UHGV virus genome: UHGV-1360109
Source: a virus
Length of the DNA stretch: 25,357 nucleotides
Reading direction: 5' to 3' (one strand)
The translations under genes were made by a program, and so were the position numbers. Under the pieces are notes generated by a model, which saw only the letters and a program-made list of their open reading frames with translations, was not told the origin of the DNA and searched no databases. Shown here one piece after another: positions 14,885-23,196 of this stretch. Positions within the stretch are counted from its first letter, which is position 1. Every line of letters starts with the position of its first letter.

Positions 14885-15421
14885 TCAAACAACCCACCAG
14901 TTTGCCTGATTGGATGCCAGCCTTGCAGTTTTTATGGAATTAATTATGCCATGCTCAAGAGCCTTGTTAGCATCCAAAATGGTCGAGTCTGCTATCAGGG
15001 ATGCCCACCTAATATGGGTTCCGATGTCGATATTGAACGTCTCAACGAAGCGATCAAGATCGTTATCGAGGCATTTCCCGTACTCTCTCAATCTGGCATG
15101 GTCGGCGGCTGGGGAGGCAAAGCACCATAATAGAGGATGTAACAGGAATCTTGATAATGGGTTTGCGAAACGTTCTGAGCCAGCCAGGAAAACGATATTA
15201 GCTATGGATTCAACATTGCTTATGTTGTGAGTTCTAACGGTAACAGGGAGTGACTTAAGAAAGTTATACGCAGTAAAGCCAGCGGCAGTTTCCCCTCCCT
15301 GACTTGATATATGGATATTTAATTCAGTTGCGCCTTGAGATAATGCGGTGAGACAGTGGTTCTGAAGTTGCCCAACAGTGGCAGTGTTAACGGGGCATAA
15401 GAAATGAATTGTGTGCAGCAT
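14885..15421 (-). CDS. ClpP/SppA-fold serine peptidase homologue (cargo gene, co-transcribed with mnt)
   Basis: 178 aa; ELNIHISSQGGETAAGFTAYNFLKSLPVTVRTHNISNVESIANIVFLAGSERFANPLSRFLLHP aligns by eye with E. coli ClpP [67 protein letters not shown]; candidate nucleophile Ser and His are in place; start ATG shares one base with the mnt stop (TAATG). Confidence 0.75.
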   Translation of the reverse strand: MLHTIHFLCPVNTATVGQLQNHCLTALSQGATELNIHISSQGGETAAGFTAYNFLKSLPVTVRTHNISNVESIANIVFLAGSERFANPLSRFLLHPLLWCFASPAADHARLREYGKCLDNDLDRFVETFNIDIGTHIRWASLIADSTILDANKALEHGIINSIKTARLASNQANWWVV

Positions 15422-15675
15422 TATTTATCATCCTTGCCATAAATCTTTTTAAGTGTCTCAAACACAACGGCCTTGAACTGCTCTGCTTGCTGATCAGCCA
15501 AGCGTTCAGCTTCGTCTCGATAGCCTGCAATCGGTGATGGCTTTGAGAGAGCATCCTGAACGATTTGTAATAACTCAGAGTTCATTGACCTTCCGTTAGC
15601 CTCTGCTCTTAATTTCAATTTTTCTCTTACTTCCAAAGGCATACGGAAGTTAAAGTGCGGATCGTTTCTAGCCAT
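15421..15675 (-). CDS. mnt: Mnt repressor (ribbon-helix-helix)
   Basis: 84 aa; MARNDPHFNFRMPLEVREKLKLRAEANGRSMNSELLQIVQDALSKPSP closely resembles P22 Mnt; GGGGTGA RBS; divergent from arc across the operator region. Confidence 0.92.
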   Translation of the reverse strand: MARNDPHFNFRMPLEVREKLKLRAEANGRSMNSELLQIVQDALSKPSPIAGYRDEAERLADQQAEQFKAVVFETLKKIYGKDDK

Positions 15676-15697
15676 GCCATCACCCCAAGTTAGTGTA

Positions 15698-15751
15698 TTG
15701 ACATGATAGAAGCACTCTACTATGTTCTCAATAGGTCCACAGTGGACCTAT
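15698..15751. promoter_or_regulatory. immI control region: Pant promoter with arc and mnt operators
   Basis: TTGACA (15698-15703), 17-bp spacer, TATGTT (15721-15726); arc-operator-like ATGATAGAAGCACTCTACTAT (15703-15723); perfect 21-bp palindrome ATAGGTCCAC-A-GTGGACCTAT (15731-15751) matching the P22 mnt operator. Confidence 0.85.
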
Positions 15752-15765
15752 ATTGTGAGGTAAAT

Positions 15766-15924
15766 ATGAAAGGAATGAGCAAAATGCCGCAGTTCAATTT
15801 GCGGTGGCCTAAAGAAGTATTGGATTTGGTGCGTAAGGTGGCGGAAGAGAACGGGCGATCTGTTAACTCTGAGATTTACAAGCGAGTGTTGGACAGCCTG
15901 AAGAGAGAGGGGATAACGGTATGA
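15766..15924 (+). CDS. arc: Arc repressor (ribbon-helix-helix)
   Basis: 52 aa from ATG 15766 (MKGMSKMPQFNLRWPKEVLDLVRKVAEENGRSVNSEIYKRVLDSLKREGITV), close to P22 Arc; GAGG RBS; the ORF-track start at 15703 is an upstream extension running through the operators. Confidence 0.92.
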   Translation: MKGMSKMPQFNLRWPKEVLDLVRKVAEENGRSVNSEIYKRVLDSLKREGITV

Positions 15925-16142
15925 GGTTTATTGAGGTTGATGAGATTGGCTATGAGAATGCACTTGGTAGAGGTAAATCTTTAGTTAACATTGATGGCAT
16001 TGAATCGATAAGGAGTGGTGAATTTACGGAGATCAGAATGATGTCAGGCGGAATCATTCCTTGCCGTGATTCAGTAGAGTCAATCAAATCAAAAATGAGT
16101 GGTCAGTGGCTTTATAGCTACAGTGACTTACAAAAACAGTGA
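15921..16142 (+). CDS. small hypothetical protein inserted between arc and ant
   Basis: 73 aa; ATG 15921 overlaps the arc stop (ATGA); no family recognised; arc and ant are adjacent in P22. Confidence 0.5.
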   Translation: MRFIEVDEIGYENALGRGKSLVNIDGIESIRSGEFTEIRMMSGGIIPCRDSVESIKSKMSGQWLYSYSDLQKQ

Positions 16143-16205
16143 AGCCCCAACTGCGGTAACAGTCAGGGCTTCGGTATCGTAAAACCACGCATAGGAATTA
16201 ACGAC

Positions 16206-17129
16206 ATGACGAGTGTAGCAATTGCAGAACATACAATCAACGTTCCATTCCACGGAACAAATCTCTTTTTGGTCAGCATTAACAATGAACCTTACGTTCC
16301 TATGAAACCCGTTGTAGAAGGCATGGGTATGGTTTGGGCTGCTCAATTTGTTAAATTAAAACAGAGATTTGTCAAAGGTATTTCGGAAATCGAAATACCT
16401 TCTGCTGGCGGTAAACAGTTAATGATATGCCTTGCCTTTCGTAAGTTTGCGGCTTGGCTTTCAAGCATTCAGCCAAACAAAGTCCGCCCTGAAATCCGCG
16501 ACAAGGTAATCCAGTATCAGGAAGAGTGTGACGATGTGCTCTACGAGTACTGGACTAAAGGCTATGTAGTTAACCCACGCAAATCTAAAAAGGCGTTGCC
16601 GGGTAAAATCACCACTGAACAGCAGGAAGCCATTAAACAACTCGTCATGAGTCGCGGTCAGTCTCTGCCAAAAGAAAAACAGGCTAAGGCGATGATCACC
16701 ATGTGGTCGTCACTGAAATCCCATTTTGGATGTTCGTACAAAGAAATCAGTGAGGAGCAGTTTACAGAAGCACTGTCACTTGCAGCTCGAGTTCCGCTTG
16801 AAGGTGAGTTCATCGGCAAACAAGAGAAGAAAACCAACGAGCTTTCTGCAAAAGAAGCAAACAGCCTTGTATGGTTATGGGATTATGCCAACCGCTCACA
16901 GGCATTATTCCGCGAACTGTATCCGGCGCTAAAACAAATTCAATCGAACTATTCCGGCAGATGCTACGACTACGGTCATGAATTCTCGTATGTTATCGGA
17001 ATGGCGAGAGATGTTTTAATCAACCATACACGAGATGTTGATATTAATGAGCCAGACGGACCAACGAATCTTTCCGCATGGATGAGACTTAAGAATAAAG
17101 AATTACCTCCTTCAGTACATAACTACTGA
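16206..17129 (+). CDS. ant: antirepressor Ant
   Basis: 307 aa, close to P22 Ant (300 aa); position after arc; AGGA RBS; followed by a strong terminator. Confidence 0.82.
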
Positions 17130-17148
17130 TAGATAACCAACGCAACGA

Positions 17149-17171
17149 CCCAGCTTCGGCTGGGTTTTTTT
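17149..17171 (+). terminator. rho-independent terminator after ant
   Basis: CCCAGC-TTCG-GCTGGG hairpin followed by TTTTTTT. Confidence 0.8.
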
Positions 17172-17229: not shown

Positions 17230-20175
17230 ATGACAGACATTACAGCCAATGTTGTGGTAAGCATGCCTTCGCAACTCTTCACTATGGCGCGTTCTTTTAA
17301 AGCCGTAGCTAATGGCAAAATTTATATCGGTAAAATTGACACTGATCCTGTAAATCCAGAAAACCAGATTCAGGTCTATGTGGAGAATGAAGACGGTTCT
17401 CACGTTCCTGTTTCGCAACCAATAATCATTAACGCTGCTGGATATTCTGTATATAACGGACAGATTGCCAAATTCGTTACCGTGCAAGGCCATTCTATGG
17501 CTGTTTATGATGCGTATGGTGCGCAGCAGTTCTATTTTCCTAATGTGCTGAAGTATGACCCTGATCAACTACGGCAGCAATTAGAAGACCCAGATGGAGC
17601 GAATAAATACCCAAAACTTCAGATAGCAAGATGGAGAGACAGTTATGATGTAAGAGGTTGGGGGGCTATTGGTGATGGTGTTCATGATGATACATCAGCT
17701 CTATCAGAATTACTTTCTGTTGCAACAGGTGGTGAAAAGATAGATGGGCGAGGGCTTACTTTTAAAGTATCAACTCTTCCGGATGTCAGTCGATTTAAAA
17801 ATGCTCGTTTTTTATTTGAGAGAATACCGGGCCAGCCTCTTTTTTATGCTTCTGAAGATTTTATCCAGGGAGAGTTATTTAAAATTACAGATACACCGTG
17901 GTACAACGCCTGGACGCAGGATAAAACGTTTGTATATGACAATGTCATCTATGCGCCTTTTATGGCTGGAGACCGCCATGGTGTAAATAACCTCCATGTT
18001 GCATGGGTTCGCTCAGGAGATGACGGGAAGACCTGGACAACGCCGGAATGGCTTACAGATTTACATGAAAACTATCCCACAGTTAACTATCACTGCATGA
18101 GTATGGGGGTTGTCAGAAATCGCCTTTTTGCTGTAATTGAGACGCGGACCGTGAGAGGAAATAAACTGCAGGTTGCAGAGTTGTGGGATCGCCCAATGAG
18201 TCGCAGCCTTCGCGTTTATGGTGGTATAACGAAAGCAGCAAATCAGCAAGTCGCTTATATTCGCATTACTGATCACGGATTATTTGCTGGTGATTTTGTC
18301 AACTTCTCAAACTCTGGTGTTACAGATGTTACCGGGAATATGACGGTGACTACTGTTATTGATAAAAATACCTTTACAGTTACGACGCAAAATACCCAGG
18401 ATGTGGATCAGAATAACGAGGGTAGATACTGGAGTTTTGGTACATCATTTCACTCGTCACCATGGAGAAAAACCAGTCTTGGAACTATTCCTTCTTTTGT
18501 TGACGGAAGCACTCCTGTTACTGAGATTCACAGTTTTGCGACGATTAGCGATAACAGTTTTGCTGTTGGCTACCATAATGGTGATATTGGTCCACGCGAG
18601 CTTGGGATACTCTATTTCTCTGATGCTTTCGGTTCTCCTGGTAGCTTTGTTCGCAGACGCATACCTGCAGAATATGAGGCGAATGCATCTGAGCCATGTG
18701 TAAAATATTATGATGGCATTCTGTATCTGACGACCAGGGGGACATTAAGTACTCAACCCGGTAGTTCATTGCACAGAAGCTCTGATTTAGGTACATCATG
18801 GAATTCTCTTCGCTTCCCAAATAATGTTCATCACTCAAACCTTCCTTTTGCCAAAGTTGGCGATGAGCTGATTATTTTTGGCAGTGAGCGCGCATTTGGT
18901 GAGTGGGAAGGAGGAGAACCTGATAACCGTTATGCAGGAAATTATCCAAGAACATTTATGACCAGAGTTAACGTCAATGAGTGGAGTCTGGATAATGTAG
19001 AGTGGGTTAATGTTACTGATCAGATTTATCAGGGCGGAATAGTTAACTCTGCGGTTGGTGTTGGTTCAGTTTGTATCAAAGACAACTGGCTGTACTACAT
19101 TTTCGGTGGGGAAGATTTTCTAAACCCATGGAGCATAGGGGATAACAACAGAAAATATCCTTATGTTCACGATGGTCACCCGGCTGATTTGTATTGTTTC
19201 AGGGTGAAAATTAAACAGGAAGAATTTGTTTCAAGGGATTTTGTCTACGGAGCCACTCCTAACAGAACGCTTCCTACTTTTATGTCGACGTCAGGCGTGA
19301 GGACGGTTCCTGTACCCGTTGATTTCACAGATGATGTTGCCGTCCAGTCACTGACTGTCCATGCAGGTACATCAGGACAAGTTCGCGCGGAAGTCAAACT
19401 TGAGGGTAATTACGCCATTATTGCGAAGAAAGTACCGTCTGATGATGTTACCGCTCAGAGATTAATCGTTAGCGGCGGTGAAACAACGTCTTCAGCAGAT
19501 GGTGCAATGATAACGTTGCATGGTTCCAGAAGCAGTACTCCACGTCGCGCGGTATATAACGCACTCGAACATCTTTTTGAGAACGGAGATGTTAAACCTT
19601 ATCTTGATAATGTAAATGCTCTTGGTGGTCCGGGAAACAGGTTCTCGATAGTTTATCTTGGCTCCAATCCTGTGGTTACCAGTGACGGAACATTAAAGAC
19701 AGAGCCGGTCTCTCCTGACGAAACATTGCTGGATGCCTGGGGTGACGTCAGGTATATCGCTTATAAATGGCTGAACGCTGTCGCTATAAAGGGGGAAGAA
19801 GGGGCGAGGATACATCATGGTGTAATCGCGCAGCAACTTCGTGATGTTCTTATTTCTCACGGACTCATGGAAGAAGAAAGCACAACATGCCGCTATGCGT
19901 TTCTTTGCTATGACGATTATCCCGCAGTATATGATGACGTCATTACTGGCCAAAGGGAAATGCCGCTGACTGATAATGACGGGAGCATCATTGTTGATGA
20001 GGATGATAATCCAGTGATGGTAATGGAAGACATCATTGAGCGCGTTGAAATAACGCCAGCAGGATCTAGATGGGGGGTCAGGCCTGATCTCTTATTCTAT
20101 ATCGAGGCGGCATGGCAGCGCAGAGAAATGGATAAGATAAAAGCTAGGTTAGACTTAATAGAAGGGAAGCACTAA
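17230..20175 (+). CDS. tailspike: P22 gp9-like head-binding N-terminus fused to an endosialidase body with a C-terminal intramolecular chaperone domain
   Basis: 981 aa; first ~110 aa ([59 protein letters not shown]...[15 protein letters not shown]...VLKYDPDQ) match the P22 tailspike N-terminus; Asp-box motifs SGDDGKTW and SSDLGTSW; TSDGTLK near the C-terminal ~160 aa fits the Ser-Lys auto-cleaving chaperone pattern; GGAG RBS. Confidence 0.88.
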
Positions 20176-22231: not shown

Positions 22232-22855
22232 TTAAAATTCGAATTGTCTCGCCCGAAGGCTTTTCAACATTGGTCTTGCCCGTTCGAAAACGGCGCTTGC
22301 CTGGTCAAGTCGTGTCGCCTCCCTGAGCAGTACATCTCTGTTTTTCGTCACCGCATAGAAGGTTTCAAACGCAATGTCATACAGCTTACTCGCGTATGAT
22401 GAGTTAAGTTCCTTCATTATCGGGTACAGGCGTTTGCAGATGTCCTGTGCATTCTCCATCTGTACCTGCATGTAGCAGAGGAGGATGATTTCCTCGTCTG
22501 TGAATTGCTGCGCTGGTTGCATGCTGCGAAGTTTCTTTTCGCACTCGATGAAGTATCGGCGTATCTGGCGGCCTTTTTCGTTGCGCTCGACCATCGCAGT
22601 TTCTTTGGCCGTATCGAGGGTGAGGTGATAGTCTTTGCTACGGCGATCGCCTCCTCGACCTTTGATTTCCCGATTTGGGGAAACCAAAATATAGTCCTGA
22701 TTTTCAACGAAACCATATTCAGCAATGCGTTCTGTAATCCACGATGCAAAGCGTTTACCTACCCCAAGAAAAGTATGTAAATCGCGAGCATTAACGAGAA
22801 GAGTGGTTTCGTTGGCGATAGTGCCGTTGAATACGGGGATGAGTTGAATAGCCAT
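22232..22855 (-). CDS. antirepressor-like protein (Bro-N/AntA-type N-terminal domain)
   Basis: 207 aa from ATG 22855 with AGGAG 9 nt upstream; N-terminus MAIQLIPVFNGTIANETTLLVNARDLHTFLGVGKRFASWITERIAEYGFVENQDYI resembles phage AntA/Bro-N domains; ORF-track start at 22891 is a longer alternative. Confidence 0.65.
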   Translation of the reverse strand: MAIQLIPVFNGTIANETTLLVNARDLHTFLGVGKRFASWITERIAEYGFVENQDYILVSPNREIKGRGGDRRSKDYHLTLDTAKETAMVERNEKGRQIRRYFIECEKKLRSMQPAQQFTDEEIILLCYMQVQMENAQDICKRLYPIMKELNSSYASKLYDIAFETFYAVTKNRDVLLREATRLDQASAVFERARPMLKSLRARQFEF

Positions 22856-23196
22856 AATCATGACTCCTGACGTTTTAGTATTGACTGCCACCTTAGTGGG
22901 GTGGCGGGCTTCAACTACCGCGTCAGACGGCGGAGCTTATTTCCCGAAAGGGTGTTCTATTAGGCTCTCTCGACCCGCCATAGATATGGCGATACCTGTA
23001 AACAGGCATAAAAAAGCCGCAAAGCTATCGGGTGCGGTTGACCGCTGACGTTGTAGTGCGGTCAGTATGCGATAGCTCTGGCGGATTTGTCAAATCATGT
23101 AGCCTTTATCCTGCTGTAAGCCGCGCCATTCGGGATTTTCCCCATATTTGGGGAAAACTATCTGCGAAGTATTCACCTTTGACGGCAAGTTGCAGG

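Follow-up and report, generated by a model that had tools for sequence, protein, structure and literature searches.

The immunity region of the window (the whole stretch of viral DNA analyzed here, 25,357 nucleotides, UHGV virus genome UHGV-1360109) contains a genuine protein-coding accessory gene, referred to below as orf73, which is conserved under purifying selection. At least four small cargoes, unrelated and interchangeable, occupy a precisely bounded slot of the Pant operon in P22-like loci, and orf73 is one of them. The best overall explanation, held tentatively and at a little under even chances, is that orf73 encodes a ring-forming, protein-binding accessory factor made together with Arc at the onset of infection. 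The genes and signals of the region, in order along the window, are:

15421-15675, minus strand: mnt, 84 aa, Arc-like RHH plus Mnt C-terminal domain (Pfam Arc E=3e-27, Repressor_Mnt E=4e-12)
15698-15726, plus strand: Pant, TTGACA-17-TATGTT, overlapping the Arc operator (promoter scan and alignment to annotated P22)
15703-15731, minus strand: Pmnt (promoter scan; P22 annotation)
15766-15924, plus strand: arc, 52 aa (Pfam Arc E=2e-26)
15907-15912, plus strand: Shine-Dalgarno sequence GAGGGG for orf73, within Glu-Gly codons of arc, 8 nt before the ATG (direct sequence reading)
15921-16142, plus strand: orf73 (PHROG 11805; WP_001210981.1), 73 codons, acidic product with a predicted SwrD/RemA-like fold
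16138-16204, minus strand: sar antisense RNA (Rfam RF00262, 77.7 bits against a gathering score of 43, E=6e-15)
16141-16172, minus strand: sar terminator hairpin, 14 pairs (terminator scan), kept in all loci
16206-17129, plus strand: ant, a 307-aa antirepressor (Pfam P22_AR_N E=1e-39, P22_AR_C E=6e-30)
16212-16240, minus strand: putative Psar, TTGATT-17-TACACT, within the start of ant; it matches the annotated Psar of P22 by position only and is below the scan threshold
17147-17166, plus strand: terminator 3' of ant (terminator scan)
from 17230, plus strand: tailspike gene, downstream of the ant terminator

The overall plan is that of P22 immI: divergent, overlapping Pant and Pmnt promoters and the Arc and Mnt operators lie between mnt and arc, and sar is placed between the arc-side genes and the ant antirepressor gene. 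The shared components (mnt, Pant and Pmnt, the Arc operator, arc, an intact sar with its terminator, and ant with its own) occur in the same order. In alignment, window and P22 are near-identical through Pant, the operators and arc as far as codon 49; the Arc operator is identical, and the Mnt operator (15740-15760) differs at its central base, GGTCCACAGTGGACC in the window vs. GGTCCACGGTGGACC in P22. At that point the two part company: in annotated P22 only the 68-nt sar region lies between arc and ant, whereas in the window about 227 nt (about 15913-16139) stand in for four terminal arc codons and a few bases of spacer in P22. The insert carries the 73-codon gene and changes the C-terminal tail of Arc from ...KKEGRIGA to ...DSLKREGITV (KKEGRIGA to KREGITV). 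Correspondence with P22 resumes precisely where the sar terminator hairpin begins on its 5' side, at TGAAGCCCC. The initial annotation had described an extra gene, relative to P22, within the Pant operon, a 222-nt ORF starting on the arc stop codon (ATGA) and ending 63 bp before ant; the alignment and the coordinates agree with it on every point, with the orf73 ATG (15921-15923) overlapping the arc stop TGA (15922-15924) and 63 nt separating the end of orf73 from the ant ATG at 16206. The whole “ant moron” of P22-like phages is described as variable in the portion of PMC2629481 consulted; a cassette-like slot exactly between arc and sar finds no mention in the portions consulted of PMC2629481, PMC8022706, and PMC12111858.

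Both edges of orf73 are shared with neighboring elements. At the 5' side, its Shine-Dalgarno sequence is embedded in arc, and the same Shine-Dalgarno/arc junction is found in all cargo variants. Coupling of the orf73 start to arc is supported. At the 3' side, the sar RNA is complete, and the orf73 stop codon therefore lies within the 3' end of sar; the A-run in the last orf73 codons is, on the other strand, the T-run of the sar terminator. The gene has a GC content of 38.7%, vs. 47.6% for the window.

Two isolated phages, vB_SemP_Emek (Salmonella; its orf73, YP_006560572.1) and vB_EcoP-611R6 (Escherichia; URC09203.1), carry orf73 after arc, and are the only carriers among 50,697 phage records; their proteins and WP_001210981.1 are 96-100% identical, and all are annotated as hypothetical or of unknown function. 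The match to PHROG 11805, also of unknown function, has E=3e-53. In E. coli strain M15 the stretch corresponding to 15421-16142 (mnt to the end of orf73) is 100% identical to the window, and the ORF there is WP_001210981.1. Of 5,426 complete E. coli genomes, 51 have a single full-length copy at 95% nucleotide identity or better (a count of full-length nucleotide matches, not of translated frames), and among the matches listed the copies are annotated as CDS beside an Arc-family gene; presence in about 1% of E. coli genomes implies that the gene is dispensable. No match to it was found in the species-representative genomes. Metagenome contigs supplied 13 further copies, near-identical ones only. 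The initial annotation had named loss of the reading frame in relatives as one finding that would count against a gene here; in the copies read the 73-codon frame is intact, in 16/16 IMG/VR contigs, 13/13 metagenome contigs, and both isolated phages.

More distant relatives are very few. Word-indexed and exhaustive protein searches returned only relatives at least 90% identical plus one divergent homologue, an 84-aa protein (P0008) 65% identical to the orf73 product and present on a single Logan contig (exhaustive search of 1.84 billion representatives); the family amounts to two 50%-identity clusters among those representatives. A further candidate, P0009, was rejected as a spurious match to a translated repeat. 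The contig with the divergent homologue also has mnt-like and arc genes, and there the homologue is fused to arc by GTGA; both the start fusion and the Shine-Dalgarno sequence are kept at this distance. The 11-residue difference in length falls in a predicted loop. Between orf73 and this homologue dN/dS is ~0.21 at a dS of ~1.2, with 20, 14, and 30 differences at the first, second, and third codon positions. Conservation, a dN/dS of ~0.2 and the third-position excess together show that orf73 is not a chance ORF. The opposite reading, of a spurious or non-functional frame riding on a neutral insertion, could appeal to the very small size of the family, to the dispensability of the gene and to the existence of 45-, 48-, and 90-aa variants, but these have to be set against selection at substantial synonymous divergence and the retained fusion, Shine-Dalgarno sequence and frames, which leave it extremely improbable.

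The variants themselves indicate that orf73 is sometimes lost or decaying. In one (P0002, 90 aa) the C-terminus is altered (...DLQNSEAPTAGT...) and the frame reads on through the sar terminator; another (P0006, 48 aa) is truncated; in a third (P0007, 45 aa, nine contigs) an in-frame deletion joins residue 33 to residue 62.

Comparison of the arc-ant junction across P22-like genomes, suggested in the initial annotation as a check, was carried out on 80 IMG/VR loci with a P22-type Arc, measuring the interval between the arc stop codon and the sar hairpin. The slot is empty in 46/80, as in P22, with an Arc tail of the form (K/R)EGRIGA and 4 nt to the hairpin. It holds orf73 in 13/80, and three other cargo types in the remaining occupied loci: an unrelated 89-aa ORF in 10/80 (PHROG 27312; L025, from 1656), with an N-terminal membrane helix and a coiled coil; an unrelated 74-aa ORF with two CxxC pairs in 9/80 (L029 and L068, from 1656, the L068 copy being divergent); and a 57-aa basic ORF in a single locus (PHROG 17642; L051, from 1656). 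Arc without sar or ant downstream was seen in 2/80. In every junction read, the start codon of the cargo sits on the arc stop ([A/G]TGA) and its own stop is the TGA that borders the sar hairpin. Like orf73, the 74-aa cargo is under purifying selection (dN/dS 0.21). Among isolated phages the 89-aa cargo occurs in two records and the 74-aa cargo in none. Searches of Pfam and PHROGs gave no informative family match for the 89-, 74-, and 57-aa cargoes.

In 32 of the 33 loci with cargo the Arc tail is KREGIT(V/A), the exception being L068 (KREGVVM). Co-evolution of this tail with orf73 in particular was considered and rejected, the same tail being found with all four cargo types. Specific partnership of orf73 with Ant, or with the DNA-binding specificity of Arc, was likewise rejected: orf73 follows arc genes of at least four N-terminal types and precedes ant genes of at least five types, and its occurrence with so many of each makes it a small mosaic module, not a partner of any particular Arc specificity or Ant.

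A further arrangement is seen in loci L054 and L055 (arc at 1501-1659): the Arc tail is REGIALT, and arc is followed by a small ORF with a signal-peptide-like start (MKRAVLALIMLTSFGSMA...) instead of sar and ant.

The product of orf73 is an 8.3-kDa, soluble, acidic protein (pI 5.0, net charge -2.5), in which neither a membrane segment nor a signal peptide was found. The initial annotation recognized no family in it. This holds as far as threshold matches in Pfam are concerned; beyond that, there are the PHROG and RefSeq entries already mentioned (PHROG 11805, WP_001210981.1) and a weak but consistent link to the FlbD/SwrD-RemA group. The sole Pfam match is to FlbD (PF06289), at 14.6 bits (E=0.025), below the gathering threshold of 24.7 bits; all six family members match it, the divergent one included, with a best E of 0.007, and every sequence statistic for the link is subthreshold. 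The sole secondary PHROG match is to one annotated “flagellar protein”. No match to RemA-like (PF04025) was obtained at E<=10, although this Pfam model detects a RemA-like probe at E=8e-39. NCBIfam and PADLOC had no match for the protein, and nothing in these searches connects it with a defense system. In the PDB, Foldseek returned nothing significant, and the sequence search one marginal match (FAIM1, E=0.06) which is probably spurious.

SwrD/FlbD is a swarming factor of Bacillota, Actinomycetota, and spirochaetes; RemA is an octameric, DNA-wrapping biofilm activator, and LytTR domains are found in AgrA and ComE. The AlphaFold2 model of the orf73 product (mean pLDDT 81.6, pTM 0.70; two of five models confident, from six near-identical alignment rows) has strands at residues 2-8 and 18-23, a short helix at 24-26, strands at 27-32, 36-40, and 45-48, a helix at 52-60, and a low-confidence tail. 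This is the FlbD/SwrD order of β1-β2, 3/10 helix, β3-β4-β5, and terminal α-helix, as given by a model built on a shallow alignment with three of its five versions of low confidence; the model likewise has the subunit fold shared by RemA-like proteins. The corresponding model of the 65%-identical homologue did not confirm the fold (pLDDT 41). For alignment at the level of families, 120 FlbD proteins (59-97 aa) were gathered with a consensus-like probe made for the purpose and validated by Pfam (E=6e-35), and 40 of them were aligned; hhalign placed residues 19-59 of the orf73 product on FlbD positions 11-51 with low probability (P=0.012), a result that favors the link but does not prove it.

Crystal structures of SwrD, described in a 2026 preprint, are hexameric rings closely resembling RemA, in which a conserved Asn15-xxx-Ile19 on the short helix holds the ring together at the pore (PMC13232269). 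The family-invariant residues N23, I27, and E28 align to N15, I19, and E20 of SwrD, thereby reproducing the pore motif, and T36, I38, G43, S51, and E53 are further matches. Small size, topology, and the Asn-xxx-Ile-Glu motif are thus held in common with SwrD/FlbD. The differences are a longer β1-β2 loop, a conserved aromatic tail (GQW-Y-Y-DL) instead of a variable charged one, the subthreshold Pfam score, and the lack of the Pro-Asp of the SwrD Pro26-Asp27-Thr28 loop, of Arg6 and of Glu23 (here E34-F35-T36, D7, and R31, respectively). Hardly any change is seen in the last 14 residues (SGQWLYSYSDLQKQ), including those of the 65%-identical homologue. Genomic context differs also: orf73 is encoded in a phage immunity operon, between arc and ant, and outside any flagellar (fla-che or flbD-motA-motB) operon. 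From RemA and LytTR the protein departs in being acidic, in covering only half of a LytTR domain, and in lacking the β3-β4 arginine insertion. Taken together, the model and the motif make a SwrD/FlbD-RemA “half-LytTR” fold somewhat likelier than its absence, and since the Asn-xxx-Ile-Glu motif of the SwrD pore is retained, the product probably forms a ring-shaped homo-oligomer.

What such a protein might do can be approached through several alternatives. One is that it is a nucleic-acid-binding regulator of the RemA, LytTR, or ComK type, its rings binding DNA or RNA and adding a further layer of control to immI or to host transcription. Fold neighbors and operon context favor this, but the details of the protein do not: DNA binding by RemA depends on R50, R51, and R53 in the β3-β4 insertion (PMC8481266), and in its place the orf73 product has a three-residue loop (S32-G33-E34) with no arginine cluster, in a protein of net negative charge; SwrD, with the same fold as RemA, also has no DNA-binding motifs (PMC13232269). 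The company of many Arc and Ant alleles and their operators, with no co-varying target site apparent, points the same way, and a nucleic-acid-binding role is quite unlikely. A role in competition between phages, where the protein would keep out co-infecting phages or manipulate resident prophages instead of countering host defenses, is given the same low likelihood. The region holds exclusion genes in P22, Ant itself targets the repressors of other phages, and one of the alternative cargoes encodes a small membrane protein, as exclusion genes commonly do; orf73, on the other hand, has no membrane segment or signal peptide, and repression of Pant by Mnt in lysogens should silence it just when prophage exclusion would matter.

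Action on the flagellar motor would follow most directly from the SwrD/FlbD similarity: by binding the MotAB stator, the protein could alter motility and, for example, block flagellotropic phages. The FlbD signal, the only one in Pfam and the only one in an annotated PHROG, and the agreement with SwrD in topology and pore motif are in its favor. Yet the residues predicted to face MotA (the Pro-Asp-Thr loop and Arg6) are precisely among those not conserved, and structurally related proteins are found in phages infecting Enterococcus, Mycobacterium, Gordonia, and Microbacterium, hosts which to our knowledge are not flagellated. The SwrD-MotA interaction could itself not be confirmed biochemically, and Escherichia has no SwrD (PMC13232269); together with the position of orf73 outside a flagellar operon, this makes a motor function very unlikely. 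A toxin-antitoxin-like pairing, with Arc as RHH antitoxin-repressor and orf73 as the small toxin following it, is suggested by gene order, the 4-nt ATGA overlap and an autorepressing upstream RHH protein, all resembling type II operons, and by the link between the Arc C-terminal tail and the slot. A type II system would have a specific, co-inherited toxin partner with a known toxin fold; here one Arc tail goes with four unrelated cargoes, most Arc genes have no cargo at all, and no toxin fold was found, so that this pairing is scarcely to be expected.

Autoregulation by Arc is established for P22 (cited in the portion of PMC12111858 consulted). Since Pant, the Arc operator, and Pmnt are almost identical to those of P22, early expression followed by shut-off by Arc and Mnt is to be expected, and to this extent the architecture agrees with the early burst from Pant and repression by both proteins put forward in the initial annotation. 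Restriction to the early period is another matter: according to the portions of PMC12111858 and PMC2629481 consulted, late transcription, reading through from Plate, covers arc and ant as well, and according to the former sar blocks translation of ant only. Taken together, these imply that orf73 is probably made late too, i.e., that its expression is both early and late, not early only.

On this architecture, the sequence of events might run as follows. Pant would transcribe orf73 immediately after DNA entry, and coupling of its translation to that of arc would yield roughly Arc-like amounts of the product in the first minutes. Accumulating Arc would then shut the gene off, and Mnt would keep it silent in lysogens; read-through of the late operon would probably make the product again. 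The sar RNA would have no control over orf73, because sar pairs with the ant leader. The product, if the model and the weak homology are a guide, would be an acidic ring binding proteins rather than DNA. As a last and speculative step, it may bind a host or resident-prophage protein to the benefit of the incoming phage, in counter-defense or counter-immunity.

An anti-defense role of this kind is plausible by analogy. The interchangeability of unrelated cargoes in one slot lends circumstantial support to the anti-defense or host-takeover idea, and counter-defense or counter-immunity is consistent with the anti-immunity role of Ant itself; slot polymorphism of this sort also fits many accessory functions besides counter-defense. 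The nearest parallel is with acr-aca operons, which likewise combine a strong early promoter, a small co-encoded autorepressor (here the RHH protein Arc) and a variable small cargo in a fixed position. An RHH-type repressor, Aca14, has been described (PMC13551039), and Arc could be seen in the role of the Aca repressors of anti-CRISPR operons. There are differences: Arc precedes the cargo instead of following it, and the established payload here is an antirepressor. Extended to its full form, the analogy would make the arc-sar junction a cassette site for early counter-defense or counter-immunity, and orf73 a ring-shaped inhibitor of some host target, with a mode of action common to the many small FlbD-like proteins of other phages; in this form it is rather unlikely.

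Some of this is already known: database entries for the gene, as a hypothetical protein, go back to 2012, and variability of the region around it is on record. The literature searched held no mention of the protein accessions or of PHROG 11805; the slot for interchangeable cargo, the link to a SwrD/RemA ring fold and the probable early and late expression were likewise not found there. P22 immI is a textbook regulatory circuit, and many of its relatives carry a bounded, swappable slot running from arc to the sar terminator. From the slot come a few concrete candidates for accessory functions that act early (73, 89, 74, and 57 aa), and the isolated phages Emek and vB_EcoP-611R6 offer tractable systems for orf73. 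On the protein side, modeling would tie an orphan phage family to the SwrD/RemA ring fold, a fold that proves to be common among small phage proteins. Should the cargoes be counter-defense genes, an RHH repressor of the Arc type would serve as a useful guilt-by-association marker in phages of enterobacteria; should the junction be a cassette site as outlined, P22-like phages would have an enterobacterial counterpart of acr-aca operons in which Arc does the shutting off, and no phage-borne ring protein with the SwrD/RemA fold would have been shown before orf73 to inhibit a host target. If the cargoes have other functions, orf73 is an unremarkable hypothetical accessory gene, in a region whose flux is already documented.

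Other features of the window and its relatives bear on the wider setting. On the far side of mnt, a 178-aa ClpP-like gene (14885-15421, minus strand; Pfam CLP_protease E=2e-11) begins at the final base of the mnt stop. For this reason it appears to be co-transcribed with mnt, in the operon that should be active in lysogens; it may have an accessory or exclusion role when expressed from the prophage, and PADLOC had no match for it. The accessory pair upstream of mnt in Emek is different (L001, 1158-2031): a DUF4065-domain gene (1158-1607) overlapping a 161-aa ORF (1546-2031). The early-left region of the window has a second antirepressor-like gene (22232-22891, minus strand), with an AntA domain and P22_AR_C, in addition to the ant of immI. 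The tailspike gene downstream of ant (17230-20175, plus strand) encodes a 981-aa endosialidase with P22 head-binding, endosialidase propeller and barrel, and C-terminal S74 chaperone domains, from which the element would be a K1-capsule-specific P22-like prophage; the gene is intact in the window and split by IS903B in E. coli M15.
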